Positions 1 to 46,060 of a stretch of 47,474 bases of DNA are shown here, one piece after another. Within the stretch, counting starts at the first letter, position 1; each line of letters opens with the position of its first letter. The stretch is from IMG/VR virus record IMGVR_UViG_3300015189_000001, positions 1 to 47,474 of that record; one strand, given 5' to 3'. A program made the translations under genes and the position numbers. The DNA is from a virus. The notes under the pieces are model-generated. The model searched no databases and was not told where the DNA came from. It saw nothing but the letters and a program-made list of their open reading frames with translations.

Positions 1-127
1 ACGGCAGCGACCGTGCGTAGTTGGAATACCACGCCAACCCACTGCCTGCAACGTACTGACGGCGCGGATCGGCGGTGACCTTGCCGGTCGTGCCTGCGAT
101 CGGTGCAATGCTGCCGTTGGGGCTGCC
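1..127. repeat. Terminal overlap copy 1, identical to 47348..47474
   Basis: Read directly: the first and last 127 nt are the same string. This implies a closed circular or terminally redundant unit of 47,347 bp. Confidence 0.95.
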
Positions 128-172: not shown

Positions 173-305
173 GTCGCCACTTCTCTATAAGCTCTTTGTA
201 ATCGGCGTCCATACACCGCATTGCCCAAACATGAGAAACCACTAGCCCAAGCAATCCGGCGGCATAACAAGTAATTAGATACACTAAGAACCATGCAATA
301 GTCAT
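165..305 (-). CDS. Small single-pass membrane protein (46 aa) between terL and portal
   Basis: MTIAWFLVYLITCYAAGLLGLVVSHVW... The start makes an ATGA overlap with the terL stop, and the stop overlaps the portal ATG. The segment is visibly AT-richer than its surroundings. Confidence 0.45.
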   Translation of the reverse strand: MTIAWFLVYLITCYAAGLLGLVVSHVWAMRCMDADYKELIEKWRHD

Positions 306-1780
306 CCGCGTCGTCCTCCGATCGGCTGTACTGCTGGGAAGCGCGCCGGGCCAGCGGCGGCGTTGAAGGCGACTGCCGGGCGGCGTGCGACCATGAGCGC
401 AATCGCCCACATCATCACCCGATCATCGTAGTAGCCGCTCGGTGCGCCAGTTGATCCGTCCTTCAGTACCCGATAGATCTGCAATTCGTCCAGGGTTGCC
501 TGGGTATGAATCACCGCGCTCTCATCGCGTAGCGCCGTGGCCAGCAGGTCGATCATCTGCGGCTTGGTCTGCGCGTTCGTGAGCCAGCCGGGCCGGTCAT
601 CGTGCCCAAGTGCGACCTTGGGCGTGTGCAGCGTTTTACACTTGACCAGTACCGCATGTCCGTGATTATTGCGCTCAACCGCCAGCGTGGCGTTGTAGGC
701 GCGGGTGAGCAGATCGAGTGATACCGCGTACTCATCGGGCTCCCAGTGCCCATGCAGATGGAACAGTTCTTCCCAGGAGGCTGCATCAATACCCGTCGCC
801 GCGCTATAGTCGCCGTGCTCTAGGCCTTCCGCCACATCCGCGCCGATAATCACCCGCTGGGTTGCCCTTGGTAGCGCGTAGATCGTGAGCCCCTCAATCA
901 CACGGAGCGCCGTTGGCCACTGGTTACGCGGCAGGCCGATGCGCACATTGCGCGCCTGCTTCGTTACCCAGTCACTGGTGAAGCGTACGCGCCCGCTCAC
1001 TAAAAAGGCTTCCGTCGCGCTAGATGGGTATTCCTGTTTGACCATCGCCAGATCGGTGTACTCGGCTTCCTGATTAGCGTACCATGCGGCATCGCGCCCC
1101 GGCCTGCTCCACCAGGGGAGAAAGATCGCCTTGAAGCTGTTGAGTCCGCTACTGGCGCGTGTCCAGAGCCGGTGAAAGAGATTACCGATACCAAGCGCTG
1201 AGCTGAGCACAATCAACTGGCCACCTGCGTCGATCGTCGGCTTGAGCGCGGTGTACAGCGCATCGGCAAACATAAGCTTGGCAGCCTCGTCCAAGATGGC
1301 CAGTGACGCCGTGTAACCACTACCTGCGTTCGGCGATGCGGGCAGTGACATGATCGTTGATGTGTTCTCCCAGATCGCCTCTGATGTGTTTCGCTTGGTC
1401 AGCTTTGGCGCGCTCTCACGCAGCCAGGATGGCAAGCGATCATACAGCGCCAGAATGCGCCGTAGCATCTCGTTGGCCTCGGGTTGCCCTTTGGAAAATA
1501 CCAGCACGACCTTGCCTCTTTGGAATAAACACAACCAGAGCGCGTACCCACAACAGATCCAGGAAATACCCAACTGGCGAGCCTTCAGGATAATAACCAA
1601 TCGCTCGGTCATGAGCGCCCACATGACACCGATCTGTGCTGGCCAGAGCTTGAATGGCATCGTACCGCCGCCATCGCCATGCCCTTGTGCGTCGTCTATG
1701 ATTCCGTAGTGATCGATGAAATAGGCGGCGTCGGCGCTACATTTGAGGTATTCAATTGTTCGCGCATCTGCTTCCGCCAT
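302..1780 (-). CDS. terL: Terminase large subunit
   Basis: 492 aa. Walker A-like LKARQLGISW, Walker B LAILDEAA, and a C-terminal nuclease-like half. It sits between the small terminase and the portal. Confidence 0.9.
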   Translation of the reverse strand: MAEADARTIEYLKCSADAAYFIDHYGIIDDAQGHGDGGGTMPFKLWPAQIGVMWALMTERLVIILKARQLGISWICCGYALWLCLFQRGKVVLVFSKGQPEANEMLRRILALYDRLPSWLRESAPKLTKRNTSEAIWENTSTIMSLPASPNAGSGYTASLAILDEAAKLMFADALYTALKPTIDAGGQLIVLSSALGIGNLFHRLWTRASSGLNSFKAIFLPWWSRPGRDAAWYANQEAEYTDLAMVKQEYPSSATEAFLVSGRVRFTSDWVTKQARNVRIGLPRNQWPTALRVIEGLTIYALPRATQRVIIGADVAEGLEHGDYSAATGIDAASWEELFHLHGHWEPDEYAVSLDLLTRAYNATLAVERNNHGHAVLVKCKTLHTPKVALGHDDRPGWLTNAQTKPQMIDLLATALRDESAVIHTQATLDELQIYRVLKDGSTGAPSGYYDDRVMMWAIALMVARRPAVAFNAAAGPARFPAVQPIGGRRG

Positions 1781-5326: not shown

Positions 5327-5550
5327 GACACTTCTCCCTGAAAACGATCATCCGCAGATTGCCAGCGCGCCTCATTGATCAGTGCGGCCGCCTGCTCAAG
5401 CACGTCCGTCGTCCAGTGACGATCGGGCCAGTGCGGATCGCGGCACAGATCGCCCTGCATTGCGACGAATACCCCACGCACGATCAGGTGCCAGCGACCC
5501 ATGCGCAAGACAACTTCTGCTATTTTGTCGGCGGGTTGCTCGCTCATCAT
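5323..5550 (-). CDS. Hypothetical protein (75 aa)
   Basis: The MMSEQPADK start overlaps the endolysin stop. Confidence 0.5.
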   Translation of the reverse strand: MMSEQPADKIAEVVLRMGRWHLIVRGVFVAMQGDLCRDPHWPDRHWTTDVLEQAAALINEARWQSADDRFQGEVS

Positions 5551-6608
5551 GCCTCCATGATCGTATTGCCAATTGACAGAATCCGCTGGGTGTAGCTCGC
5601 ACTCGGAGCCCAACGCCCGTTCAGCCCGTTGATTGTCGGCGCACTGCCGCGATACTTGGACGGCAGCGCCCGTAGGGACAGCGCGTCAGTGATGAGCTGC
5701 TGCTGGTCGGCGGTGCCTTGCCCTTGTGGGAGCGCGTAGGCGAGCAGCCTGCCGACGTGGGCCTTTGCCGCATCCTCCCAGGTATCGAAGGTCAAACCCT
5801 TGCCCGGCTCACCTGTGACGCCCAATCCTGCCGGGTTGCGGTTCGGACGGGTGGCCCATTGGCTGCTGAGATAGCTCGTTTCATGACACATCTGCGCAAT
5901 CGCAATCAGCGGGTCGAGCCCTGCCGCGTACGCGAAATACGAGCGCACAATGCTGGCAACATCGTAGGACGTGTACGCGCCGTGTTCGTGCGCCATGATG
6001 ACGGCGGCGCACTGCGCTTGCGTCGCGCGCGGCGGGGTGATCAGCACGCTGGCGTTCGTGAGCGGTGGGACGGGTGGTGGGGTGTTCTGCATGCGGGCGA
6101 GTGCCGAGCGCACCACGTTCATATCGATCATCTTGCCGGGGCAACTCTTGTTCGGTAAGCACTCGCGATGCCCAAGCACCTGGCTTGGCGCAATGTCGGC
6201 CCAGTCCATCAGCAGCAGCACGACGCCGTACACGAGGTCGGCAACGGCAGCCGTCCACGGCTCGGTGTCGTAGTTGCCGACCACTTCTATACCGATGTGA
6301 TCAGGATTGCAGCCGCCCGCGTGGATGCCGGACATGGCTAGCGGGGTGCCAGCCCAGATCCCGGCGTCGGTCGGGTGTGGCACATCAGATGCGAGGAACA
6401 GATGCGGCCCAGCTGACCACCCCTTTGCGATGTAGTATTGCTTGGTGCCTTCCATCGTGGCACGCCCATGCCATTGCGCGCGCGTCGGCACGAGGCTGTG
6501 GTGCAGTGTAATGCCTTTAATCCACGCGGGCGGCTTGAACGGCAGCAGCGCAGCGCGATAGGCGGCAAGCGTCGGGTACCGAATGGTGTCCCATGCGAAT
6601 ACGCTCAT
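5547..6608 (-). CDS. Endolysin: N-acetylmuramoyl-L-alanine amidase (Amidase_2/PGRP-like) plus a C-terminal glucosaminidase-like domain
   Basis: The N-terminal half has ITLHHS...GIHAGGCNPDHIGIEVVGNYD...VLGHRECLPNKSCPG. The C-terminal half has AIAQMCHETSYLSSQWATRPNRNPAGLG. Confidence 0.85.
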   Translation of the reverse strand: MSVFAWDTIRYPTLAAYRAALLPFKPPAWIKGITLHHSLVPTRAQWHGRATMEGTKQYYIAKGWSAGPHLFLASDVPHPTDAGIWAGTPLAMSGIHAGGCNPDHIGIEVVGNYDTEPWTAAVADLVYGVVLLLMDWADIAPSQVLGHRECLPNKSCPGKMIDMNVVRSALARMQNTPPPVPPLTNASVLITPPRATQAQCAAVIMAHEHGAYTSYDVASIVRSYFAYAAGLDPLIAIAQMCHETSYLSSQWATRPNRNPAGLGVTGEPGKGLTFDTWEDAAKAHVGRLLAYALPQGQGTADQQQLITDALSLRALPSKYRGSAPTINGLNGRWAPSASYTQRILSIGNTIMEA

Positions 6609-8475: not shown

Positions 8476-8628
8476 TTAATCTTTGTTCCACTTGATTGAT
8501 ATATGTGGCCAACGCTCATAATAGGCGTGACTTATGTCGTAGGAAACCTGCCACCAGCCGAGCCAAAAGATACGAAAAACAGGCCCGCTCCAATGTACGC
8601 CGATCAGGAAGAACGGCCATTTTCTCAT
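8476..8628 (-). CDS. Small Trp-rich hydrophobic protein (50 aa)
   Basis: MRKWPFFLIGVHWSGPVFRIFWLGWW... ATGA overlap with the upstream stop. Confidence 0.45.
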   Translation of the reverse strand: MRKWPFFLIGVHWSGPVFRIFWLGWWQVSYDISHAYYERWPHISIKWNKD

Positions 8629-8834
8629 CGCTCGCCTCGCTTCGTCGGCAGCCGCCGCCCGGCCATTGCGCCCGGCGTGTTGACGACAGTCGGCAGCAGA
8701 TCGACCGCGCCGCCCTGCTTCCACGCGACGGTGAAATAGCCGCCGCAATAGCGGCACAGCACCGTGTCACCGGTCACGCGACCGCTCAGGTCGTACCAGG
8801 CTTGGCAGTGCGGGCACGGGTGGGTGGTGGTCAT
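8625..8834 (-). CDS. Zinc-ribbon protein (69 aa)
   Basis: CPHC...CRYC. Confidence 0.55.
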   Translation of the reverse strand: MTTTHPCPHCQAWYDLSGRVTGDTVLCRYCGGYFTVAWKQGGAVDLLPTVVNTPGAMAGRRLPTKRGER

Positions 8835-9381: not shown

Positions 9382-9416
9382 CGGAATGCTCGCTTTCTTG
9401 TGGGGATTATACAATG

Positions 9417-9905
9417 CTAGACAAGATACAACACACAATTCTTTTCGTTTCGCGCCTTGCTGACCAAGATGCGCCGCTCAGCTGCTTCAAGCATCAACCG
9501 CATATCTCGGCTGTCGACCTGCACACATGCGGTCGCGGTCAATCCGACCGCTGCCAATCGCGCCGCCGCAATGTCGAGTACCTGATCGGCGTAGCCGACT
9601 GGGCAGCTCAGCAAGAGTTCGTCACCGCCGCGTTTCACAATCCGTACGTCGTCCGCGCGCCGGAATGCCAGGTGCCACACCCCGCGCACACGCCGGTCAG
9701 CCTCGCTGTGTCCGTGGGCGGTGTTAAAGGCCTTGAAGTTGTCAAAGTCCAGCAGGATGAGATCGCGGCGGCGGCGGTCGTGATGTACCAGGAACAGGCC
9801 AGCGGCGGCGGTCAGGATACCGTAATTCGGGTCGTAAGCCAGCGTGCGGATGACGGCAAGCAGGGCGACGATGATGGCGATGAGTAGTGCGATGATCGAG
9901 TACAA
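9417..9905 (-). CDS. Membrane-anchored minimal GGDEF-type nucleotide cyclase (GGDEL variant)
   Basis: N-terminal TM YSIIALLIAIIVALLAVI, then DPNYGILT, LILLDFDNFKAFNTAHGHSEAD, RGGDELLL and ILVSKARNEKN, which together match the GGDEF-domain landmarks. TTG start. Confidence 0.65.
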   Translation of the reverse strand: MYSIIALLIAIIVALLAVIRTLAYDPNYGILTAAAGLFLVHHDRRRRDLILLDFDNFKAFNTAHGHSEADRRVRGVWHLAFRRADDVRIVKRGGDELLLSCPVGYADQVLDIAAARLAAVGLTATACVQVDSRDMRLMLEAAERRILVSKARNEKNCVLYLV

Positions 9906-9934
9906 TGTGTTAGGCCTTTCTGGAGGCTTAGGCG

Positions 9935-9966
9935 GTGCTGAGATCGAGTTGTAGCCCTCTCAGCAC
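9935..9966 (-). other. Hairpin (9-bp stem GTGCTGAGA/TCTCAGCAC) just upstream of the GGDEF-like gene
   Basis: Inverted repeat read directly. No U-tract. Confidence 0.4.
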
Positions 9967-9978
9967 TGCCGATCAATT

Positions 9979-11135: not shown

Positions 11136-11284
11136 TACTTCCCCGCCGCCTTCCGTACCAGCTTGCTCTTGGCCGTGCGCCGCTCGCTCTTCGTGATGTC
11201 CAGCGGCGCCGCTTTGACCGGGCCACTGAACGCGGGGCGGGTGGCGGCGTAGGCGGCGAGGGCGGCTTTGGTGGCGTCGGTCAT
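11135..11284 (-). CDS. Small basic protein (49 aa), first gene of the early-left operon
   Basis: MMTDATKAALAAY... lies downstream of the predicted TSS. GAAAGG lies upstream of the ATG. Confidence 0.45.
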   Translation of the reverse strand: MTDATKAALAAYAATRPAFSGPVKAAPLDITKSERRTAKSKLVRKAAGK

Positions 11285-11333
11285 CATTGCGGGGGCCTTT
11301 CGTGTTGCGTTGCTTTGTTTCTGTGTTACCATT

Positions 11334-11361
11334 ATTATAGCACGCCGTGTTAGTTTGTCAA
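11334..11361 (-). promoter_or_regulatory. Consensus sigma-70 promoter TTGACA-16-TATAAT (leftward)
   Basis: Hexamers read on the minus strand. It drives the 11284-to-7868 gene chain. Confidence 0.7.
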
Positions 11362-11378
11362 TACCCAATATTGCCTTC

Positions 11379-11407
11379 TTGACACGGATTATAGAATTTG
11401 CTATACT
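11379..11407 (+). promoter_or_regulatory. Consensus sigma-70 promoter TTGACA-17-TATACT (rightward)
   Basis: Read directly. It is followed by an AAGGAG SD and the ATG at 11445. Confidence 0.7.
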
Positions 11408-11444
11408 GAGCAGCACCAAGTATCATGCGAAAAGGAGCAACCTT

Positions 11445-11693
11445 ATGCAGGTATCAAGCATGCCGGTCAAAAGCCGATTGAAATTACTCTTGTCGGAGAA
11501 GAACACAGAGCGTATTCGCGCTGGGGAAGAGCCTTGGAAACTGCGCGAGCTGGCCGAAGCCGCAAACCTATCACCATCAGTCGTGTCTGGTCTCACATCC
11601 AATCGCGCCAAACAGGTGCATTTCGACACGCTCTATAAGCTCTGTAAAGTGTTGAACTGTACGCCGGGGGATATTCTGGGGATTGAGGAGTGA
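11445..11693 (+). CDS. XRE-family HTH regulator (82 aa)
   Basis: WKLRELAEAANLSPSVVSGLTSNR...LCKVLNCTPGDIL is a typical Cro/CI-type HTH. Confidence 0.8.
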   Translation: MQVSSMPVKSRLKLLLSEKNTERIRAGEEPWKLRELAEAANLSPSVVSGLTSNRAKQVHFDTLYKLCKVLNCTPGDILGIEE

Positions 11694-11720: not shown

Positions 11721-11755
11721 AAAAGTCCCTGATCGAATGTTCGATCAGGGACTTT
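11721..11755. terminator. Bidirectional intrinsic terminator
   Basis: Perfect 15-bp stem AAAGTCCCTGATCGA / TCGATCAGGGACTTT with a 4-nt loop, between convergent genes. Confidence 0.7.
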
Positions 11756-12657: not shown

Positions 12658-12900
12658 ATGATGATGCGATTGATCGTTGGGCATGGCCTCTTCTTAGCGG
12701 CTGGGCTTTTTTCAGTTTCTTTTGACCGGTTCGTGTATCGACTCGCCTGTATCGGCATTATGATCGCCATGCGGGTACTTTGGATGCGTACGCGAACTCG
12801 TCGCACTACCCAGGATCTCGCCGACGCCGAGCGCGTTTTCGTGGCGGAACGTCAGCGGCGGGCTGCACATCGCGCTCGGCAGCGGCACGAAGTATACTAA
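12658..12900 (+). CDS. Possible small 2-TM membrane protein (80 aa), or a non-coding antisense transcript
   Basis: MMMRLIVGHGLFLAAGLFSV...LACIGIMIAMRVLW. AAAGGA lies upstream. It overlaps the convergent repressor gene by 95 nt. Confidence 0.35.
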   Translation: MMMRLIVGHGLFLAAGLFSVSFDRFVYRLACIGIMIAMRVLWMRTRTRRTTQDLADAERVFVAERQRRAAHRARQRHEVY

Positions 12901-13198
12901 TCGTTTCAATAACGCGATCTAGCTCCTCGTCGGAAAGTGTAAGCGCCAGCGCTGCGAACTCTGCGCGACGATTCGGTTGTGGGTCTCCGTCAAACAAGAG
13001 ACTTGCGACCTTTTCCACTTGCCCATGAATAAGCCGAACAAAACGAACCATCAGATCAAAGCTGGGGACGTAGCGCCCCGCTTCCCAATCTGATACCGTG
13101 CGCTCGACAACGCCAAGCTCCTCGGCGATGTCACGTTGCGTCAGCCCTGCTTCATTGCGTTGACGCTGAAGATAGACCCCTACTGCACTCATATTCAT
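12806..13198 (-). CDS. CI-like repressor (XRE-family HTH, 130 aa)
   Basis: LTQRDIAEELGVVERTVSDWEAGR. It is divergent from a cro-like gene across an operator-rich spacer. Confidence 0.75.
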   Translation of the reverse strand: MNMSAVGVYLQRQRNEAGLTQRDIAEELGVVERTVSDWEAGRYVPSFDLMVRFVRLIHGQVEKVASLLFDGDPQPNRRAEFAALALTLSDEELDRVIETISILRAAAERDVQPAADVPPRKRARRRRDPG

Positions 13199-14252: not shown

Positions 14253-14468
14253 ATGGCCCGAACGCGGCGATGGCCCGACGATGCAGAAGAAGAACGAACA
14301 GACGCCATCGCGTATTTTGTCGATTTGGAAAAGCTCGGACGGATGATCGAGGCACAGGCGCGACTTGATCCCGTTCTTGTCGAAAAGCTCGCGATTAAAG
14401 TCCAGCTGGCAGCCGCCTACGGCAAACACGTGCTTGAGATGGCACGACCGACGAAGCCCACGGAATAA
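14253..14468 (+). CDS. Hypothetical protein (71 aa)
   Basis: ORF in the rightward chain. Confidence 0.5.
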   Translation: MARTRRWPDDAEEERTDAIAYFVDLEKLGRMIEAQARLDPVLVEKLAIKVQLAAAYGKHVLEMARPTKPTE

Positions 14469-14532
14469 CGAAGCCACGCGGTGCGTAACCACCCGTGGCG
14501 CGGCACACAAGCAACTGTGGAGGCAGTCACCT

Positions 14533-15375
14533 ATGAGCAATCCAAGTATACACCAAGACCGGCTCAGCGACACAACGACTTCCTACCTTGCGCGCATTGG
14601 CGAGACGCCGTTGCTCCGCCCTGCCGAGGAGCGCGCGCTGATGGCGCTGATCCGGGCGGGCGATGCTGATGCGACCGAGCGCTTTATCTGCGCGAACTTG
14701 CGGCTAGTCGTGAGTATCGCCAAGAAGTACACGCGACGTGGGCTCGACTTTGACGACCTCATTCAGCTCGGCAATCTCGGGCTGCTGAAGGCCGTCAGCA
14801 TGTTCAATCTGGACGCAGGAACCAAGTTCTCGACCTACGCCGTGCCGTGGATTAAGCAGGGTATCCAGCGGGCACTGGACGACCAAGTGCGCGCGATTCG
14901 CGTGCCGGTGCATGTGTCCGAGTCGCTGCGCATGATCCGGCGCGCCTACAACCGCTTCGATCATGAGCCGACGCGGCAGGAACTGGCCGACGCGCTCGGC
15001 TGGTCGGTTGCGAAGATCAACGCGGTCTTGGAAGGCACCAAGGACGTGCGCAGCCTGGATGCGATGATCGGCCCAGAAGAGCATCAGCAGCCATTGGCCG
15101 ACGTGCTGGCCGCGCCGCCGGAGGACTTCAGCGCGCATCCAGCACAGGCCGACCTACGCGCAGGCCTGGACGCGGCGCTCAGCGCACTACCGGATCGGAC
15201 ATCCCAGATGTTGCGCTATCGCTACGGGCTAGAGGACGGAACACCGCACACACTCGACGAGACGGGCGCGCTGCTCGGGCTGACCCGCGAGCGCGTGCGA
15301 CAAATCGAGTATGAGGCACGCAAAACACTACGCGAGTCCTGCCAAAGTCTGCGCGTGTACATGGAGGCGGTGTAG
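14533..15375 (+). CDS. Sigma-70-family RNA polymerase sigma factor (280 aa)
   Basis: Region 2: LRLVVSIAKKYTRRGLDFDDLIQLGNLGLLKAV..FSTYAVPWIKQGIQRAL. Region 4.2: LGLTRERVRQIEYEARKTL. GGAGG SD. Confidence 0.85.
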   Translation: MSNPSIHQDRLSDTTTSYLARIGETPLLRPAEERALMALIRAGDADATERFICANLRLVVSIAKKYTRRGLDFDDLIQLGNLGLLKAVSMFNLDAGTKFSTYAVPWIKQGIQRALDDQVRAIRVPVHVSESLRMIRRAYNRFDHEPTRQELADALGWSVAKINAVLEGTKDVRSLDAMIGPEEHQQPLADVLAAPPEDFSAHPAQADLRAGLDAALSALPDRTSQMLRYRYGLEDGTPHTLDETGALLGLTRERVRQIEYEARKTLRESCQSLRVYMEAV

Positions 15376-15744: not shown

Positions 15745-17814
15745 ATGAGCCATGCATCACTTCTTGATACTGCGCTCCATTATGCTCAGCAATTCGGCTG
15801 GGCGGTGCATCCGGTCAACATCAAAAAGAAGCCGATCACCGAACACGGACGCAATGACGCCACAACTGAGGAATCGGTTATTCGTCGTATGTTCCACAAC
15901 GGTGCGCAGATTGGCGTGGCAACCGGCACCGAGAGCGGCTTATTTGTGTTTGATGTCGATTACGACGAAAAGCGCGGCATTAACGGCTATGAGACGCTTG
16001 AGTACCTTGAAGCAACATATGGCAAGTTGCCGCTCACCCCGCACCAACGCACCGGGCGCGGCGGCACACAGTACCTGTTCCGCTATGTGGATGGCCTCAA
16101 GAACAGCGCCAGCGCCAAGGAGATCGGTGCAGGCATCGACACACGCGGCGCTGGCGGCTACATCGTCATCGCACCGAGCCACAATACCAATGGCCCCTAT
16201 GAGTGGATTGCGAGCCCCGATGATACGCCGCTGGCCGATGTGCCGGAATGGCTGGTGACACTGCTCAAGAAGCCCAAGCAGACCACACCAGCAGGCACCA
16301 CAACCGCGACGGGGGATGATCGGGCCTACTGCCTCAAGATGTTGGGGCAGGCGGTCGCACGCTGCGCAACCGCTGCCGATGGCACCAAGCACGATACGCT
16401 GCTGAAGATGGCGACATGGATGGGCGGCTTTGTTCCTGCGATTTCGGATTTAGAGATCGAGAACGCATTGTTCTCCGCTGTGGCGCTGGTGGCGGATGAC
16501 CCAGACGGCGCGCGTAAAACCATCCGTGACGGCATCGCCTACGGCAAAACGCGACCGCTGAATGTGCCGCCGTTGCGCACCGCGTCTGTGCGAACAGATG
16601 TGAACCCAGCGACGGGCGAGGTTATTGCAAAACCGCCTGTTGAATATATCCCAGGCCCACAGGAAGACCCCGAGAGCCAGCAAATTATCGACCGCCTAAA
16701 GCTCATGGGTTATTCCTTTCGACTGAACCTCTGCACGGATAGCATCGAGGTCAACGGCACCAAGATTAGTGATGTGATGGCAGCCGAGATCCGCACAGCG
16801 TTGCGTGACATCGGGCTATCTAAAAAGATAGCAGCTGCGGAGGATGCGTATGTTTCCTACGCAAAAAAGGACGCCTACCACCCTATTCACGATTACTTGA
16901 ATAATCTGAAGTGGGACGGTCATGATCACATCGGGCAACTTACCAGTTGTATGGACAGTAGCGACCCACCGATTGTGTATCAGGACGGAACGATCGTCCC
17001 GCAACACGCCGTGTACATCTACCGCTGGCTGATCGGCGCTGTCGCCAAGGCACTCGATGCGCAACAGCTCATGATGCTGGTATTGGACGGTGTAACCAAA
17101 CTCGGCAAGTCAACGCTCTGCGCGTGGCTCTGCGGCGGCATGCCGGATTATTTTATCGAGTCGAGCATCAACCCATCTGACAAAGATACGGATGTACGGC
17201 TGATCGATCGCTGGATTTGGGAAGTTGCCGAACTCGACGCCACCACGCGCAAGGCCGATCAGAGCGCACTCAAAAGCTTTATTACCAAGCGACATGTGAC
17301 TGTGCGCAAATCCTATGGGCGCTATGACATCACGAAGCCCGCTTTGGCGTGCCTGATCGGGACGGTCAACAACTCAACCGGCTTCCTGAAAGATGACACC
17401 GGCAACCGGCGCTTCATGATTACCTGCCTCACCCGACTGGATTTCAGTTACGAGATGATCGATGTGAATCAGCTTTGGGCGCAGGCTGTTCATCTGTACC
17501 GCAACGGTGAACCCTGGAAATTGGTAGGCGAAGAGGAAGAAGCGCAGAATGATACAAACAAACGCTATGAAGAAGAAACGACCATGGCCGACTGGCTTGA
17601 TTATTATTTTGATTTCGACCCTGAACTCTCTTCTACTGAATGGAGTTTAGCCGATTTGTTGATCGTGATGGCCGCTGAGTACAAACCGACTGGCACGGAG
17701 GCCAAGCAGACCGCTGAGCTATCCCGCATTTTACGCAGCAAGGGCGCAACGAAGAAGCATGGCCGCACAGGTAACCGCTGGGTTGGTATATCACGTCGAA
17801 GAGAGTCCCTGTGA
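15745..17814 (+). CDS. Bifunctional primase-polymerase (prim-pol) / SF3 P-loop helicase (VirE/D5-like), 689 aa
   Basis: N-terminus: GWAVHPV...GLFVFDVDYD...GGYIVIAPSH. Walker A: VLDGVTKLGKST. A basic C-terminal tail. Confidence 0.85.
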   Translation: MSHASLLDTALHYAQQFGWAVHPVNIKKKPITEHGRNDATTEESVIRRMFHNGAQIGVATGTESGLFVFDVDYDEKRGINGYETLEYLEATYGKLPLTPHQRTGRGGTQYLFRYVDGLKNSASAKEIGAGIDTRGAGGYIVIAPSHNTNGPYEWIASPDDTPLADVPEWLVTLLKKPKQTTPAGTTTATGDDRAYCLKMLGQAVARCATAADGTKHDTLLKMATWMGGFVPAISDLEIENALFSAVALVADDPDGARKTIRDGIAYGKTRPLNVPPLRTASVRTDVNPATGEVIAKPPVEYIPGPQEDPESQQIIDRLKLMGYSFRLNLCTDSIEVNGTKISDVMAAEIRTALRDIGLSKKIAAAEDAYVSYAKKDAYHPIHDYLNNLKWDGHDHIGQLTSCMDSSDPPIVYQDGTIVPQHAVYIYRWLIGAVAKALDAQQLMMLVLDGVTKLGKSTLCAWLCGGMPDYFIESSINPSDKDTDVRLIDRWIWEVAELDATTRKADQSALKSFITKRHVTVRKSYGRYDITKPALACLIGTVNNSTGFLKDDTGNRRFMITCLTRLDFSYEMIDVNQLWAQAVHLYRNGEPWKLVGEEEEAQNDTNKRYEEETTMADWLDYYFDFDPELSSTEWSLADLLIVMAAEYKPTGTEAKQTAELSRILRSKGATKKHGRTGNRWVGISRRRESL

Positions 17815-20542: not shown

Positions 20543-20870
20543 ACGCTATGCGGTTAAAATAGCCACAGCGGCGGCGATGCTTGAGGTGTCGCACTCCACG
20601 ATTCGCGCCTACATTGCTGATAATAAGCTCCAGGCGATCGGCAGTGGGCGCGGGTTGCGGGTGTCCGTTGAGTCGATCGAATCCTATGCACGAGGGGAGC
20701 ACCGGCAATGGCAAAACGTAAAAATGGCAAGGGTGGAAGTACCTACGGGGCCGGGAGCGTCTATCCGAATCCTGACGGATCGTGGAACGCCCAAATCTAC
20801 ATCCACGGCAAACTCATCCGGCGCCGCGAAGCCACTCGTGCCGCCGCTGAAACCACGCTCGCCGCGCTGA
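20532..20870 (+). CDS. Excisionase-type HTH protein (xis-like). The frame runs 163 nt into int.
   Basis: VKIATAAAMLEVSHSTIRAYIADNKL. It lies directly upstream of the integrase. Confidence 0.5.
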   Translation: MTTERYAVKIATAAAMLEVSHSTIRAYIADNKLQAIGSGRGLRVSVESIESYARGEHRQWQNVKMARVEVPTGPGASIRILTDRGTPKSTSTANSSGAAKPLVPPLKPRSPR

Positions 20871-21925
20871 ACGATCAGAAGCGCGAGGGTGTTGATCTCA
20901 AGCGTGGATTGCAGTCGCTCACCACGTTCGCGGATTACTGGTTCCGCGAAATCTACCTCCAGCGCACACTTGCCATCAGCTCGATCAAGCACACCCGCGA
21001 CATGTTAGAGTTGCATATTTTGCCCACGATTGGCAATCGCCCGATTATGGATGTGAGCCATGCCGAGTGTCAGCAGCTGCTGAACGACTTGCGGCGGCGT
21101 CCGAAGAAAAAGCCGCTATCCGCCCAGACGATCACCCATGTCCACGGTGTGCTGGTGCAGATCTTTGATGCTGCCGAGGCCGAGCACCTCGTGCGCTGGC
21201 ACCCGGCCCGCGCATTAGAAATCCCCAAGATTGTGCGGATACAAAAAGACGCCATGCCCGTCGCCGCCATGCAACGCTTTTTGCACTCCATCGAAGGGCA
21301 TCGGAATGCGACCGCGTTTCACATCATGGCGACGCTCGGCACACGCCTGGGCGAGACGCTGGGATTGCGGCGCATCGACTGTAACGCCGACTTCACGGTG
21401 ATTCGTATTGAGCAGCAGATTGACTATCACACCGTCACGGCCACCGACCCCAAGCACGGATCGAAGCGCCCGCTGCCGGTGCCTCCCAGGCTGGCTGCGC
21501 GCCTCGCTGCGCAATGGGAGAGTGTATCGCCGCATGCTGACTGGGCCGAGCATGGGCTGCTGTTCCCGAGCGAGGTCGGCACGCGGATGCACCCGCGCAA
21601 CTTTGAGCGCACCTGGCATGGGCAGGATAAGGTTGTGATACGCAAGGGCAAGAAAGAAAAGGTCTATTATTCCGGCCTGCGTGAGCGGGGCGGGCTGCCT
21701 GAAGGAACGATCCTGCACGACTTTCGCAAGTTCGTGGCGTCCCAGCTCGAAGATTGCGGCGTCGAGCAGCGCACGATTGGACACATTCTCGGACACGGCG
21801 CGAAGAACGTGACCGAGAAGTACATTCTTCGCAGCCTGCCGACGATGCGGCGGGCGCTGGAAAAGCTAGAGGCGGCGCTGTGGGCAGAGCAGGAAGCGGC
21901 GGACGCGGGCGAAATTCTCTCATAA
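20708..21925 (+). CDS. int: Tyrosine recombinase (phage integrase)
   Basis: TLGTRLGETLGLRR, HDFRKF, GHILGH and EKY supply the R..H-x-x-R..H..Y residues. The N-terminus GSVYPNPDGSWNAQIYIHGK looks like an arm-binding domain. Confidence 0.9.
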   Translation: MAKRKNGKGGSTYGAGSVYPNPDGSWNAQIYIHGKLIRRREATRAAAETTLAALNDQKREGVDLKRGLQSLTTFADYWFREIYLQRTLAISSIKHTRDMLELHILPTIGNRPIMDVSHAECQQLLNDLRRRPKKKPLSAQTITHVHGVLVQIFDAAEAEHLVRWHPARALEIPKIVRIQKDAMPVAAMQRFLHSIEGHRNATAFHIMATLGTRLGETLGLRRIDCNADFTVIRIEQQIDYHTVTATDPKHGSKRPLPVPPRLAARLAAQWESVSPHADWAEHGLLFPSEVGTRMHPRNFERTWHGQDKVVIRKGKKEKVYYSGLRERGGLPEGTILHDFRKFVASQLEDCGVEQRTIGHILGHGAKNVTEKYILRSLPTMRRALEKLEAALWAEQEAADAGEILS

Positions 21926-22564: not shown

Positions 22565-22614
22565 TGGTGAGCCGCGAAGGACTTGAACCTTCAACCCGCT
22601 GATTAAGAGTCAGC
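22565..22614 (-). other. attP core: 3' portion of a tRNA-Lys(CUU) (anticodon arm, variable loop, T-arm, acceptor 3' strand, CCA)
   Basis: Minus strand: GCTGA-CTCTTAA-TCAGC GGGTT GAAGG-TTCAAGT-CCTTC GCGGCTC A CCA. No matching 5' acceptor or D-arm is present. It lies 640 bp from int. Confidence 0.7.
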
Positions 22615-22767
22615 GGGTTGCGATACCGGCAGATACCACTCCCTCTGTATTCCTCTCTGTTATGCGGAATTTCGCATAACCCCCCCACACTTGGTGCCGA
22701 TAGGCGCTAACACAGTCACTCATGGAATGATCATTTTTTGTTTTAGTCGTTATAAGAGAACACGCTA

Positions 22768-32266: not shown

Positions 32267-33700
32267 TTAGTAGCCGAGTCGATTGGTGTCAAGGATGCCG
32301 CTGGTCGTGCTATCCAAAATGAACCACACATCGTTGCCGACTGGCGCGAGCTGCCAGGTTGTCAGCCACACGTTTGCGCCGATGCTCTGATTCATCGCCT
32401 GAATGCGTGCGGGCTTGGCGATCGGGCTGCCCCCGCCGGGCGGGCGGCGAATGACCGTGATCTTGTCGTCAAAGGTGCGCGCCAGGATCTGCGGCCACAG
32501 TGCCGCTGGCGACAGGTCACCATTCAGGATCAGTGATTGCACGCGCAGATACGGCTGTGCGTAGAGCCCAACCAGATACTGCGCGCGGCTCAGCGCCTCG
32601 GCGTCGGTCGTGATCGGCAGCCCGGTGATCTGTGTGCCGCGCAGCCCATAGGTTGCCTGACTACCGGTGTCGTCCCACACTTGCGCCGCCCCGCCCGCGC
32701 GCGTGACCTCGGCGTGGTTGATCAGCCGCGTGTCATCAAACGAAAACGACACATCCACATACGGAAACTCGCCCGCTGTGACGGCTGCAAGGTTGCTGTG
32801 GCTTGCCGCTGTGCTCCCATACGCGCCGCGTGTCGCCCCCAGCAGCTGGTTGGTGCCGAGACTCGTGTAGGCAATCCACTCCGCGTCGATCAGCACGGTG
32901 CCGCCACTCGGGAAGCCTGCGTTACTCGTCACGTTGATCGTCGTCACACTGGCATTGTGCGCGCCCGCTAAGGTCGTGCTCGGTAGCACCGACGCATCGC
33001 CAAACAGCGCCTGGCTGGTATTGTTGCGCACCGCCCAATAGCGATCGTGATAGGCCGTTTTGCCGTCGTCCTCGGCGAAGAACGATCCGCCGTCTGCGCT
33101 CGCAATTGTTTGAATGCTGGTCAGCGCGGGCGCGGGCCCCCAGGTCTGCGCGGCGATTTGTGTTGACGTGACTACGCTTCCAGTGCCACGATCCGCCGCT
33201 GGCCAGCCCGCCGTGTTCAGAATGTCGCCGATGACTTGCGCCGCGCTGTTGGATCCCCCTTCGAATTGGGTGACCGTCGTATAGTTGAACGGCTTCAGGA
33301 GATCGACCGCCGTCAGCCGCACCAGATTGAGCGCCACATTGCCGATCGCGACATCGATCGGCACCCAGCTTTCCACATAGCCGGTGTACAGGTCGTAGGT
33401 CACGCTATTCCAGGTTGCGCGCACGTTGACACGTTTGGTCGGGATGATGTTTGGGGCGTACGGGCTGGCGACGTTATCGGGGTCGAAGCGCCGATCACGG
33501 TTATCGAGCAACAGGGTCAACGTCCCGGCCTGGATCTTATCGAGCTCAAACTGCCGCCCGCGCGTGATACTGATCGGACTGCCGCCGGGGCTGTTTTCCA
33601 GCCACGCATAGGCACTGATGTCCGTCCACGTTAGGCCCGCGATCGGGTCAAATGGCGCGGCGGCGAGGGCGATGCGGATGGTCAGTACTGGCCGTGTCAT
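32267..33700 (-). CDS. Distal tail protein (Dit-like, siphovirus tail family) with an extra domain (477 aa)
   Basis: Immediately after the tape measure. N-terminus ...ISITRGRQFELDKIQAGTLTLLLDNRDRRFDP. Confidence 0.65.
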   Translation of the reverse strand: MTRPVLTIRIALAAAPFDPIAGLTWTDISAYAWLENSPGGSPISITRGRQFELDKIQAGTLTLLLDNRDRRFDPDNVASPYAPNIIPTKRVNVRATWNSVTYDLYTGYVESWVPIDVAIGNVALNLVRLTAVDLLKPFNYTTVTQFEGGSNSAAQVIGDILNTAGWPAADRGTGSVVTSTQIAAQTWGPAPALTSIQTIASADGGSFFAEDDGKTAYHDRYWAVRNNTSQALFGDASVLPSTTLAGAHNASVTTINVTSNAGFPSGGTVLIDAEWIAYTSLGTNQLLGATRGAYGSTAASHSNLAAVTAGEFPYVDVSFSFDDTRLINHAEVTRAGGAAQVWDDTGSQATYGLRGTQITGLPITTDAEALSRAQYLVGLYAQPYLRVQSLILNGDLSPAALWPQILARTFDDKITVIRRPPGGGSPIAKPARIQAMNQSIGANVWLTTWQLAPVGNDVWFILDSTTSGILDTNRLGY

Positions 33701-36700
33701 TAGTGAATTCCCGTTGTGCCGTTACGCATTTGATTTTGAAGCAGCGCCTGTTGTGTGGCATTGCCAAGTGCAATTGGGTCGCCCACATTCGTCCCTGCGG
33801 GCAGCGTTACATGCAGATCACCGTTGATCACAAATCCTGCCTGTCCGCCGCCGCGCACGGTGTCGCCAGCGGTCGGGCTCGTGGAGTTGGTGAGCTGTGC
33901 TAAAATCGCCGCGAACTGCTGTTGGGCCTTGGCGGGGTCAACACCGAACTCACTCGCAATCAGCGCGGCGCGTTTCTGGGCCTCCTGGGACGTAATGGCG
34001 GTCATCTGTAGCTGTGTGTTCGTATAGGCCAGCAGTTGCTTGCCGACCGCCGTTTCAAGCTGGGTCTGCTGCTTGTCATAGCTGGTTTGCGCGGTTTGCT
34101 CCTGTCGTGCGAGGCTCGCATTTTCGTTTGTGATTTGCTTTTGGCGTGCCAGATCCGCCGCCGCCTGCTGCTTGTCGTAGGATTCTTTAGCCTTCGCCTC
34201 ACCCACACCGTAGGCGATGCCCGTATCGTTGATCTGCTGTGCTAAGGCCAGATCGCGGGCCTGCTTTTGTGTTGCCAGATGCGTGGCCTGCTTCGCCTCG
34301 CTTGTGGCGTAATCGGCTAACTCCGCATCGTAGGATTTGCGCAGATTCGCGACATCGGCCTGATATTTCGCATCGTCGCTCGCGACCTGCTTGGCGTGCG
34401 TGTCCTGTAATTTCGCCAGCGCGGTCGTATTGGCCGCGTCCTGGGCCGCAAGCTGCCGCGCATAGGCCGCGTTGGCTTTAGACTCCGCGTCGACGTAGGC
34501 TTTGTCCTGGCTGGCCTGCTCGGTCGCTAAGGTCGCCTGCTGCTTGGCAAGCTGTGCCGCCGCCTGGGTATCCTGCTTTTGCAGCGCCTTGGCGTCCTGT
34601 GCCTCCTGTCGCGCTTCGGCCTGCGCGGCCTGGTCAAGCTGCCGCTGAAGGGCAACGGCAGCCTTTGCCGCCTGCCGGTCGTAGCTGGTTTGGGCTTTGT
34701 CCTCCTGCTTCGCGTAGCGGTCATCCTCAGCGTCGATCTGCTTTTGGATACTGGCTTTTTGCTTGGCGTCCGTGGCCGCGTTCAGTTGCTCTTGCAGGTC
34801 GCTCAGCCGGTCGGTGTGGTCGCTGGCGCGGCTGGTTTTATCCTCCTGAAACTGCTCATCGTTGGTCTGCTGGTTCTCGGCTGCCGTCGCCTGCAAGTCG
34901 GCGGTGCGCTGCGCATACTGTTGCTGACGATCGGCCAGTTGATCCGCCGCCTGTTGCTGGCGATCAGCCGCCGCCACGACATATTGCGTTTGTAGGTCGG
35001 TTGCGCGCTGGGTCAGTTGTGTGGCGCGATCCTGGTAGGACTGCGCGGCGCTCAGCTGGCGGTCGTGTTCGCGGGTTTGCAGATCGGTGATCTTCGTCGC
35101 GCCCTGGGTCGCAAGCTCCACCGCACGCGCCTGATAGTCGGCGTCACGCGCCTGATCGGCTTGCAGGTTCTGTACGGTGCGTGCGCGGGCCTGGTCGTTG
35201 ATGCCGCTCAGCTTGTCGTTGCGCGATTGGACGGCCTGCACTTGTCGATCGTGCTCGGTCGCAAGGGTGTCGGTCTCTTGGCGCGCAGCGGTCTGCTGAA
35301 GCTGCCGCAGTTGCTCCATGTAGCTGGCGCTGCGATCGGCATCGGCGTCGCGGTAGTTTTGCAGGCGTGTGGCACGCTGTTCCTGTGCTTGGCTGTCGAT
35401 GGCGGTCAACCGCGCCTGGTGATCGCCCTGGCGCTGCTGCTCGGCGTCCTGAAACTGCGCTTGGCTATCGGCCAGCTTTTCATAGGCGGCTTGGCCGGTT
35501 ATACCGGTTTTGTCGAGCTGGTCTTGATATTTCTTTTGGGCCTCGGCGCTCGCTTGGGTGTTGAGCGTGAGCGCGGATTGTGTGTCCGCAAGCGAACTCA
35601 GCGTATTCCCTGAGTTTTCAATGCCCTGTGCGTAATCGCCGGTCGTCCACGGCCCGCCGCTGACCGCCGCGTTGAGCGTGGTTGTCGCCGCCGTGGCGTT
35701 GGTTGCGGCATAGCCCATCTGACCGAGATACCCGACCACATCGCCCGATCGGAGCGCGTCCACGAATTGATGCAGTGGGCCAAAGCCCATCTGCTCACCG
35801 ATCTCGCGGCTACTCGGAAATGAGCTTTTAATCTGATTGAACCCATCAACCAGCTTTACGACATCAACATATGCGTCATGAACCGACCCGGCGAAATCCT
35901 TAATATCCTGCACAAAAAGCGGCAGTTCCCCCTGCACCAAGTCGCCAATGACCTTGCCGATTGCCTGTATGTTCTCTTTGCCCGCCGGGCTGTTCAGGGT
36001 GTCAACCAACCCTTGCAGAATGGGCTGGACTTCCTTAATCGCGGGCCCCAACAGATCGCGGCTGCCGATGGTTTGCAGGTCGCTCAAACTGTTCAGTAGC
36101 CCCGACATCGTGCCGGACTGTCGCGCCGCCGCGCCGCCAAAGTCGTTTTCCAGCGAGTAGGCGATGGCCTTGACGGCCTGATCGGCGGGGATCAGCCCCT
36201 GCTCACGCAACGCGACGATTTCAGCGGTCGTTTTGTTAAAGGCCTTCGCCAGAATCTGATCAACCGGAATGCCCGCGTTGACCAGTTGCAGGACTTCTTG
36301 GCCGGCCACCTTGCCCTTGGCCTCGATTTGCCCCAAGGCCAGCGCGACCTGGTTGACCGTCTCGGATGTGCGCCCGCTGCCCGCCGCGAAGTCCACCAAG
36401 TCTTGGGTGAGTCGTTTCGCGCTGATCGCGGTCTTATCCGCTGATTCGGACACGAAGCCGTAGCCCTCGGCGGTGCGGAACGCCGCCGCAATGCCCGCCT
36501 CATCAAACGGGCTATTGATGGCGAGTTGTTCATTCCACTTCAGCAGTTCGGCGGCTTTGGGGCTGGCCTGACTTAGCGCGTCGCTCATGCTCAGCGTGGC
36601 ATCGGCGTTGCGTAGCTCGCGCGCGACCAGGGTCTGGAGAGATTGATCGAGGCGCTCATTGGCGGCATAGGCATCGACGGCATGCGACACAAAGCCCGCG

Positions 36701-36924
36701 ACCGCCTGCCCGGCCTGCACGACCGCCTGAAAGGTCAGGAACTTGCCGAAGAAGTCATCAATTTGCCCGCCGCTGCCGCCGCCGCCACTCCCCAGCCCGT
36801 CGATTTTGCCCTCGATCGTCGCCAGCTGCTCAGCGGTGTGGGTCGCAAATTGTGCGATCGTCGCATCAGCGCTGGTGGTATTCGCGCCAACCTGGACGAC
36901 TAAACTTTCAGCGGTGATCGACAT
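33700..36924 (-). CDS. Tape measure protein (1074 aa)
   Basis: Size and position after the G/GT genes. A long Q/A/D/K-rich coiled-coil core. Confidence 0.85.
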   Translation of the reverse strand: MSITAESLVVQVGANTTSADATIAQFATHTAEQLATIEGKIDGLGSGGGGSGGQIDDFFGKFLTFQAVVQAGQAVAGFVSHAVDAYAANERLDQSLQTLVARELRNADATLSMSDALSQASPKAAELLKWNEQLAINSPFDEAGIAAAFRTAEGYGFVSESADKTAISAKRLTQDLVDFAAGSGRTSETVNQVALALGQIEAKGKVAGQEVLQLVNAGIPVDQILAKAFNKTTAEIVALREQGLIPADQAVKAIAYSLENDFGGAAARQSGTMSGLLNSLSDLQTIGSRDLLGPAIKEVQPILQGLVDTLNSPAGKENIQAIGKVIGDLVQGELPLFVQDIKDFAGSVHDAYVDVVKLVDGFNQIKSSFPSSREIGEQMGFGPLHQFVDALRSGDVVGYLGQMGYAATNATAATTTLNAAVSGGPWTTGDYAQGIENSGNTLSSLADTQSALTLNTQASAEAQKKYQDQLDKTGITGQAAYEKLADSQAQFQDAEQQRQGDHQARLTAIDSQAQEQRATRLQNYRDADADRSASYMEQLRQLQQTAARQETDTLATEHDRQVQAVQSRNDKLSGINDQARARTVQNLQADQARDADYQARAVELATQGATKITDLQTREHDRQLSAAQSYQDRATQLTQRATDLQTQYVVAAADRQQQAADQLADRQQQYAQRTADLQATAAENQQTNDEQFQEDKTSRASDHTDRLSDLQEQLNAATDAKQKASIQKQIDAEDDRYAKQEDKAQTSYDRQAAKAAVALQRQLDQAAQAEARQEAQDAKALQKQDTQAAAQLAKQQATLATEQASQDKAYVDAESKANAAYARQLAAQDAANTTALAKLQDTHAKQVASDDAKYQADVANLRKSYDAELADYATSEAKQATHLATQKQARDLALAQQINDTGIAYGVGEAKAKESYDKQQAAADLARQKQITNENASLARQEQTAQTSYDKQQTQLETAVGKQLLAYTNTQLQMTAITSQEAQKRAALIASEFGVDPAKAQQQFAAILAQLTNSTSPTAGDTVRGGGQAGFVINGDLHVTLPAGTNVGDPIALGNATQQALLQNQMRNGTTGIH

Positions 36925-45875: not shown

Positions 45876-46060
45876 CGTTCTATCCTTGCACTGCGTCGTC
45901 GCTCGGCACGCGTTGGGCGGCTCGGCGGCAGGCCTAACAGCTTCTCCAGGCGCTCAGCTGCCGCAACATGGATGCGGTACGCTTCGAGCAGCGTGGCGCG
46001 TTCTGTATCTAGTATAGCACGCTCCGCAAGGGGCTGGCTAGTTTGTGTTTGCATTGTCAT
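45872..46060 (-). CDS. Small protein (62 aa) overlapping the portal 3' end
   Basis: ATGA coupling to 45405..45875. Confidence 0.45.
   Translation of the reverse strand: MTMQTQTSQPLAERAILDTERATLLEAYRIHVAAAERLEKLLGLPPSRPTRAERRRSARIER

Follow-up and report, generated by a model that had tools for sequence, protein, structure and literature searches.

Small GGDEF proteins are annotated in siphoviruses of Bordetella and Pseudomonas: the Vojvodinavirus paper noted such a gene, present also in the Pseudomonas Yuavirus phages, and reported that LK3 lysogens are hyper-biofilm formers, without biochemistry. Pseudomonas phages also encode the YIP peptides, early products that activate the host cyclase YfiN and raise cyclic di-GMP (c-di-GMP; PMC8085984). 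On the bacterial side, the mCpol enzymes (OptS of Panoptes) are stripped-down palm-domain nucleotide cyclases related to GGDEF domains and Cas10; they mostly lack the GGDEF motif, make 2',3'-c-di-AMP or 3',2'-cGAMP and are paired with a 2TM-beta effector. Here we consider a gene carried by a stretch of viral DNA, IMG/VR record IMGVR_UViG_3300015189_000001 (47,474 nt, analysed in full and hereafter called the window), whose 162-aa product combines one N-terminal transmembrane (TM) helix with a compact GGDEF-type domain in which the motif reads GGDEL. We propose, with a probability of about 0.55, that this protein is a stand-alone, sensor-less, membrane-tethered and helix-dimerised diguanylate cyclase (c-di-GMP synthase) made early in infection, a reading that draws on sequence comparison and on a predicted structure.

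Compared with the canonical GGDEF cyclases (PleD, WspR, SadC, DgcZ and GcbC), the window protein has the same palm fold in its predicted structure and carries the metal-binding Asp, the base-contacting Asn and Asp, the GG(D/E)E hairpin and the phosphate-binding Lys in the same order and register, and, as in the stalk-linked cyclases, its catalytic domain directly follows a helix. It departs from them in being phage-encoded, in having a lone TM helix and no sensor or receiver domain, in being about 23 residues shorter, and in its DPNYG in place of DxLTG, its non-Phe fifth motif residue, its off-register RxxD and the displaced Arg of AKxxGRN.

The closest analogue is provided by the small GGDEF proteins of the Bordetella and Pseudomonas siphoviruses, which are likewise phage-encoded, of about 150–160 aa, single-domain and devoid of a sensor, and which are encoded at an early or middle gene location. 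They differ from the window protein in having no TM helix, in a motif that reads AGDEF, not GGDEL, in a DPLTG turn of canonical form, in showing no tblastn similarity to it within 50,697 GenBank phage records, and in belonging to a different phage lineage as judged by the large terminase (TerL). Even so, the compact GGDEF protein of phage CN2 (APL99257.1, 152 aa; L089:30325-30783) is shortened in the same places as the window protein, and hhalign aligned it with our family profile at 85% probability (E 5.9e-6, 119 columns) with deletions at the same places, the N-terminus being different. A viral structure library also returned GGDEF fold matches in several uncultured Caudovirales phages and in the 152-aa 'diguanylate-cyclase GGDEF domain protein' of Bordetella phage CN1. 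The novelty implied by an earlier reading made from the letters of the window (the sequence-only reading) was thus overstated, small GGDEF proteins having already been annotated in cultured Yuavirus and Vojvodinavirus phages; the window family is a new membrane-anchored version of phage GGDEF proteins that have so far been known by annotation.

Gene, family and predicted fold

The open reading frame (ORF) is present on the minus strand as first described, and its translation holds every quoted motif in the quoted order: DPNYGIL at residues 25–31, LILLDFDNFKAFNTAHGHSEAD at 49–70, RRAD at 82–85, RGGDELLL at 92–99 and ILVSKARNEKN at 146–156. Together with 14 homologue clusters (49–73% identical to it) the window protein forms a family whose members are all 160–190 aa long, and pairwise ratios of nonsynonymous to synonymous substitution (dN/dS) against ten homologues lie between 0.21 and 0.46, with dS near or past saturation. 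The gene is therefore real and under purifying selection. An ORF on the opposite strand (9414..9887) is its shadow, homologues being found only for the minus-strand product. The start codon is TTG or GTG in seven of 11 homologues of the gene (window, L001, L002, L087, L091, L093 and L096), a pattern suggesting that weak initiation of translation has been selected for.

All members of the family known at present come from phage or phage-like metagenomic contigs, with four of the loci in IMG/VR. Within the GenBank phage records there was no match to the locus by megablast and none to the protein by tblastn, and relaxing the latter to E<=10 brought in two short, spurious matches; in a search of 185,579 species, each represented by one genome, the family was not found, the only matches being ordinary cellular GGDEF domains with 27–43% identity over the core. 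When the family profile was run against 1.84 billion representative proteins it gave 76,033 matches at E<=0.001, just three of which reached E<1e-30, so that the close family is tiny and nested within the GGDEF superfamily; the matches outside the family, among those listed and inspected, were GGDEF-domain proteins.

Two distant small proteins from the representative library, P0033 (168 aa) and P0152 (170 aa), also combine an N-terminal hydrophobic helix, a DPxY-type turn and a compact GGDEF-like core. Degeneracy of the sites in both (SGDEF/SGDEL, with certain base or metal ligands altered) gives a hint of a broader clade, possibly one with loss of catalysis. Separately, four PHROG families labelled 'unknown function' (phrog_5594, phrog_14602, phrog_9661 and phrog_8342) match the GGDEF core at E 7e-7 to 0.011, and phage GGDEF domains are therefore under-annotated in PHROGs.

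The identification of the domain as GGDEF, made originally from the sequence, is upheld by a Pfam match above the gathering score, by GGDEF domains in all of the top 50 fold matches and by catalytic residues that fall in register. The PF00990 score is 25.0 bits (gathering score 23.8; E 1.8e-5), a precomputed match to it is carried by 10 of the 15 family members, and the top-scoring NCBIfam family is the GGDEF model TIGR00254. Against PDB sequences the single sequence retrieves mostly diguanylate cyclases, weak aminotransferase tails appearing only above E 0.08, and the 15-member profile retrieves SadC, PA0861, GcbC and DosC (E 6.5e-10 to 8.7e-9) in matches that span the whole domain, C-terminal helix included.

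An AlphaFold2 model built on the 15-sequence alignment (predicted local distance difference test score, pLDDT, 81.8; predicted template-modelling score, pTM, 0.72) comprises helix 2–23, helix 30–41, strand 47–54, helices 57–64 and 66–78, strands 88–92 and 96–102, helix 106–119, strand 124–132, helix 135–151 and strand 158–160. This is a beta-alpha-beta-beta-alpha-beta palm with a terminal helix and strand, in which GGDE (93–96) lies between strands 88–92 and 96–102. The 50 best Foldseek matches in the PDB are all GGDEF domains, at probability 1.00, and nearly all of them diguanylate cyclases; the one LapD among them is a c-di-GMP receptor.

Active site, anchor and likely product

HMMER alignments to the reference structures SadC (4wxw) and GcbC (5euh) place the catalytic residues in register: D53, D55, K58, N61, H66, D70, the GGDE of residues 93–96 and K150 align ungapped to both. 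In SadC, LILLDFDNFKAFNTAHGHSEAD is aligned ungapped to LALIDLDHFKRINDRHGHAAGD, KRGGDELLL pairs with RYGGEEFVL and AERRILVSKA with ADQALYRAKR. We take D53 to be the equivalent of the metal-binding D327 of PleD, K58 of K332, N61 and D70 of the guanine-contacting N335 and D344, G93–E96 of G368–E371, and K150 of the phosphate-binding K442; DPNYGIL, to go by its position and by general knowledge of GGDEF domains, presumably stands for DxLT. The spacing of N61 and D70 is identical to that in PleD and SadC. Among the 15 sequences, which go down to 44% identity, D53, D55, F57, K58, N61, G65, H66 and D70 are invariant, as are R92, G93, G94, D95, E96, K150, K155 and N156.

Since the Asn and the Asp at the guanine-contacting positions never vary, the sequences point to GTP rather than ATP as substrate. 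Hypr GGDEF enzymes, from which it is generally known that the fold can yield cGAMP, carry Ser at the position of PleD D344, where all 15 members of the present family have Asp (D70). The adenine-using mCpol and Cas10 enzymes carry Ser at the position of the guanine-contacting Asn (the Asn/Ser base rule; PMC12657218). These positions bear directly on the suggestion that the protein is an active palm-domain cyclase with a product other than c-di-GMP (3',3'-cGAMP, a c-di-AMP isomer or a short cyclic oligonucleotide) that jams or decoys the cyclic-oligonucleotide-based antiphage signalling system (CBASS) or Panoptes/PanDA-type immunity. The domain is indeed stripped down like the mCpol-type enzymes and bears a weak, sub-threshold resemblance to mCpol in Pfam (E 0.22); moreover, the authors of the Panoptes work expect phages to have countermeasures, and a possible exaptation of GGDEF domains for bacterial immune systems is raised as speculation in the PanDA preprint. 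However, both N61 and D70 are invariant, whereas Hypr and mCpol/Cas10 enzymes carry Ser at one or other of these positions, no mCpol, Cas10 or OptS appears among the sequence matches or the top 50 fold matches, no PADLOC model matches, and no effector or sponge gene is conserved next to the GGDEF gene. We consider such a product very unlikely.

Two specific identities were considered and rejected. The PF18182 (mCpol) match reaches 12.3 bits against a cut-off of 26.4, and neither mCpol nor Cas10 is found among the sequence or fold matches. Membership of Panoptes as an OptS was set aside as the gene has no conserved adjacent 2TM-beta effector gene and PADLOC gave no match. Unlike mCpol, then, the window protein keeps GGDE and the guanine residues intact and has no conserved partner, and its Pfam mCpol match is non-significant.

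An inhibitory RxxD site is common in GGDEF cyclases, though not obligatory. The RRAD of the window protein had been described as RxxD-like but non-canonically spaced, and so it is: R82..D85 ends seven residues before G93 where the canonical spacing is five, R and D standing at -11 and -8 from G93 instead of -9 and -6. The canonical positions are occupied by A84 and V87, and in the SadC alignment the canonical RxxD lands on D85–R88. The R82..D85 pair is found in 12 of the 15 members and is absent from three.

The claim of a single N-terminal membrane anchor holds. The best 19-residue Kyte–Doolittle mean is 3.03 in the window protein and 2.07–3.03 over all 15 members, Lys and Arg are wholly absent ahead of the helix in 14 of the 15, and the 30 residues past it contain five to eight Lys/Arg in every member. 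This charge distribution predicts an N-out/C-in, single-pass inner-membrane anchor with the catalytic domain in the cytoplasm and virtually nothing in the periplasm; because the predicted anchor has essentially no periplasmic part, there would be no sensor domain, in agreement with what had been claimed. From the end of the helix to the DPNYG motif the family has one to seven residues. In cellular cyclases, the DxLTG wide turn comes after a dimeric helical stalk.

Several features weigh against a diguanylate cyclase and are gathered here. The PF00990 match is partial and barely above threshold, being limited to residues 43–98 (profile positions 29–85 of 161), and the TIGR00254 match stays below its cut-off (29.9 bits versus 37.4, E 3.8e-7). 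Relative to the Pfam model the domain is about 23 residues short, lacking part of the helix that follows the opening turn as well as the beta-hairpin insert between alpha3 and the last core strand. Its GG and Lys lie 57 residues apart, the minimum for the 139 GGDEF domains taken from the retrieved matches, for which the mode is 67–75 and a few cellular domains go down to 59. AlphaFold2 confidence is poor at the DPNYG turn, with pLDDT <50 for residues 24–32. The position of PleD R446, which is the second phosphate-binding residue (in AKxxGRN), is occupied by E154 (N, H, T, C or R in other members), with a Lys one residue on. The fifth motif residue (position 97) is Leu in the window protein and L, V, I, M, K or Q across the family, Lys or Gln being found in three members, and a published genome analysis (PMC4331095) states that a change from GGDEF to GGDEL should leave the enzyme inactive, as happens in WspR. 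In addition, the literature searched deals with phage cyclases at the level of annotation, no paper that characterises one or gives biochemical data on a phage GGDEF protein having been found, and Pfam and PHROGs revealed no c-di-GMP effector or phosphodiesterase (PilZ, EAL or HD-GYP) among the approximately 45 other ORFs of the phage.

It could be argued from such features that the GGDEF domain is catalytically dead or crippled and acts by binding, as a membrane-tethered c-di-GMP/GTP sponge or receptor that employs the RxxD-like motif or half of the active site, or as a modulator of a host membrane cyclase or effector. The F-to-L substitution reported as inactivating in WspR, the drift of the same position to K or Q in three members and the shift of the second phosphate-binding residue would all fit, as would the retention, in 12 of 15 members, of an R..D pair near the canonical inhibitory site. 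The distant small TM-plus-GGDEF-like proteins with degenerate SGDEF/SGDEL sites point the same way, and phages are known to act on host cyclases by binding, the YfiN-interacting peptides (PMC8085984) being an example. On the other hand, in degenerate GGDEF domains of the receptor type the entire catalytic set is usually lost, whereas here the metal and base ligands, the phosphate-binding Lys and GGDE are invariant in 15 of 15 members despite saturated synonymous divergence; the RxxD-like motif is two residues off register and missing from three members, and the protein is without an output domain for signalling by binding. On balance we regard a binding protein of this kind as unlikely, albeit an explanation to be taken seriously, and favour an active diguanylate cyclase.

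Phage genome, operon and leader

That the gene is phage-encoded is confirmed, as terminase, portal, tape measure, endolysin, primase/helicase and integrase genes are recognised in the window (Table 1), together with two methyltransferases. An exact 127-bp overlap of the termini (window 1–127 = 47348–47474), with the ends falling between the portal and terminase genes, indicates that the genome is closed into a circle and complete at 47,347 bp, and the integrase and the Cro/CI-type regulators mark the phage as temperate. Neither half of the genome found a near relative by megablast in the GenBank phage records, and TerL, among the top matches listed, is at most 31.5% identical to any of them. 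An attempt to infer the host from the terminase was abandoned, the best cultured relative being 31.5% identical and the matches being scattered over unrelated hosts.

Table 1. Coordinates of the GGDEF gene, its motifs and leader elements, and other recognised features of the window (residue numbers refer to the 162-aa protein)
Feature	Position	Strand	Basis or remarks
GGDEF gene CDS, 162 aa	9417..9905	-	TTG start at 9905, TAG stop at 9419-9417; ORF list, Pfam, family, dN/dS
N-terminal TM helix, residues 2-23	9837..9902	-	Kyte-Doolittle, charge bias, AlphaFold2 helix; predicted N-out/C-in
DPNYGIL, residues 25-31, variant of DxLTGL wide-turn motif	9813..9833	-	D25, N27, Y28, G29, L31 invariant
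Strand beta1 and helix alpha2 block LILLDFDNFKAFNTAHGHSEAD, residues 49-70	9696..9761	-	D53, K58, N61, D70, all invariant
RRAD, residues 82-85, RxxD-like	9651..9662	-	Two residues farther from GG than the canonical inhibitory site
Active-site hairpin RGGDEL, residues 92-97	9615..9632	-	R92-G93-G94-D95-E96 invariant; flanked by AlphaFold2 strands
C-terminal KARNEKN, residues 150-156	9438..9458	-	K150, K155, N156 invariant; aligns to SadC/GcbC AKxxGRN
Small hairpin GCCU/AGGC	9914..9927	-	Pairs part of Shine-Dalgarno GAAAGG (9915-9920); predicted, 91-nt leader fold
GC-rich leader hairpin	9931..9970	-	26 nt before start codon (extended stem), 29 nt from 9-bp core stem
Consensus sigma-70-type promoter, TTGACA-16-TATAAT, TG-extended	11334..11361	-	12/12 match; heads leftward operon
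Large terminase	302-1780	-	
Amidase/glucosaminidase endolysin	5547-6608	-	
Cro/CI-type helix-turn-helix proteins	11268-11693; 12806-13198	+; -	
RpoS/RpoD-like sigma factor	14365-15375	+	
Primase/helicase	15745-17814	+	
Tyrosine integrase	20708-21925	+	
Tape measure	33700-36924	-	
Portal	46038-47384	-	

The sequence-only reading also placed the gene in an early-left operon behind a consensus promoter, and the promoter is borne out: the 12/12 site lies 1.4 kb and about six ORFs upstream of the GGDEF gene, no minus-strand terminator is predicted between the promoter (11361-11334) and the gene start at 9905, and the leftward direction carries on into the lysis, packaging and structural genes. The position recurs in the family, since in the loci with enough flanking DNA (about 10 of 13) the gene stands past the helix-turn-helix regulators and small early genes and ahead of the endolysin, terminase or portal. 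Its immediate neighbours, by contrast, vary from locus to locus (a 316-aa protein, DUF4326, Rad52-like recombinases and others), and no conserved partner gene emerged from all-against-all BLAST of the flanking ORFs of six loci or from the gene tables of 13; it follows that the GGDEF gene acts without a dedicated partner.

This variability speaks against the gene supplying the nucleotide synthase of a prophage-borne module for defence or superinfection exclusion in which the effector is an adjacent partner. Such a module would suit a temperate phage with an integrase, a minimal cyclase paired with a membrane effector being a known defence design, and the 136-aa ORF that follows the gene has a 66-residue segment in common with the downstream gene of two relatives. 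But the adjacent genes differ between loci, PADLOC yields no defence-system match for the GGDEF gene or its neighbours, and the gene, lying in a leftward operon whose promoter adjoins the Cro/CI-type regulators, would be expected to stay silent in the lysogen. We hold a defence module to be the least probable of the explanations discussed in this paper.

The leader of the gene contains a GC-rich hairpin with up to 12 pairs (nine perfect and three past a mismatch) around a 14-nt loop, with a minimum free energy (MFE) of -21 kcal/mol and a z-score of -5.1; stems of at least 9 bp occur in 12.5% of the 83-nt tiles of the window. An equivalent is found in 12 of 13 homologous loci (window, L001, L002, L004, L087 and L090-L096) as an 8–14-bp, sometimes interrupted stem with an 11–21-nt loop, 22–33 nt before the start (MFE -14.5 to -29.4 kcal/mol, z -2.7 to -6.9). 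The stem sequences are wholly different between loci, which implies compensatory change, that is, a covarying hairpin as judged from folds of each locus separately rather than from a structural alignment; and as different loci have different genes upstream of the hairpin, this element is part of the GGDEF cassette. On the sense strand no U-tract follows it, the antisense strand is somewhat T-rich past the hairpin in several loci, and no Rfam family matches it. Translational control, protection of an mRNA end and termination of antisense transcription are candidate roles. Closer to the start codon lies the small predicted Shine–Dalgarno hairpin, which too may be regulatory; the CCUCC...GAAAGG arrangement recurs in several homologous leaders. 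The non-ATG starts, the partly paired Shine–Dalgarno sequence and the conserved leader hairpin together suggest that expression of the GGDEF gene is low, seemingly by design.

Some further observations concern the genome rather than the GGDEF gene. Two genes downstream of the latter, a 69-aa CxxC...CxxC zinc-ribbon-like ORF (8625-8834, minus strand) is the best-conserved neighbour, with 84% identity to L001 and 78% to L086. A perfect 16-bp palindrome at 11722-11755, predicted as a minus-strand terminator, lies between the zinc-ribbon/CI-like genes and the divergent consensus promoters at 11334-11407 and is probably the boundary of the immunity region. The sigma factor is a full-length, group-1/2-like sigma-70 protein with regions 1.2, 2, 3 and 4; its best NCBIfam matches are RpoS and RpoD (about 230 bits, all under the equivalog cut-offs), and MzaA of the MZA system also matches. 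Beside the integrase, ARAGORN calls a complete tRNA-Lys(CTT) at 22565-22641 (minus strand); in Rfam, nothing in the window reaches the gathering score for a tRNA, and the call may represent a degenerate or attP-associated tRNA-like sequence.

Proposed mechanism and what it would mean

Gene, family, fold, conserved residues and phage context being shown by the analysis, we infer dimerisation, activity, product, timing and phenotype along the following lines. The single N-terminal helix would fix the protein in the inner membrane so that the catalytic domain faces the cytoplasm, and, since it leads through a very short linker directly into the DxLT-like turn, would probably serve as the parallel helical stalk that juxtaposes two GGDEF domains in a constitutive dimer. 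Each domain may then bind GTP-Mg through D53, D95/E96, N61, D70 and K150, and the dimer would condense two GTP into c-di-GMP. With no sensor domain and with RxxD out of register, output would be governed mainly by the amount of protein, and the displacement of RxxD would leave feedback inhibition weak.

With its gene transcribed as part of the early leftward operon, the cyclase would increase c-di-GMP in the host shortly after infection or induction. The likeliest effect may be a switch in surface and motility functions (pili, flagella, exopolysaccharide) and in matrix production, from which the phage might profit if superinfection through pili or flagella were blocked or if the cell were immobilised; we draw the analogy here to early phage proteins directed at these functions and to the YfiN-activating peptides. 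The YIP peptides are small and bind a host enzyme, whereas the window protein would itself be the enzyme, with the same proposed outcome.

The same membrane-pinned, always-on cyclase can be imagined in another service, as a counter-counter-defence or exclusion device of the phage that feeds cyclic dinucleotide locally to membrane effectors at a dose set by the leader hairpin. It might, for instance, keep nucleotide-guarding pore toxins of Panoptes/PanDA type silent while host signals are being depleted by the phage, or shut down pilus or flagellar receptors within minutes. We see this elaboration, examples included, as a decidedly long shot, and return to a diguanylate cyclase acting on host c-di-GMP as the favoured account.

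The practical impact of these findings is limited until the host or a heterologous assay is at hand, and the family is small (15 clusters). If active, however, the protein would rank among the smallest natural diguanylate cyclases, with a catalytic core of about 138 residues and one membrane helix as its sole accessory, and would offer a clean system in which to ask what a minimal GGDEF protein needs for dimerisation and function. The idea of a phage-borne c-di-GMP synthase has so far rested on annotation and one lysogen phenotype; an active enzyme from the window family would show directly that temperate phages bring a c-di-GMP synthase of their own with which to rewire the surface and motility of the host.

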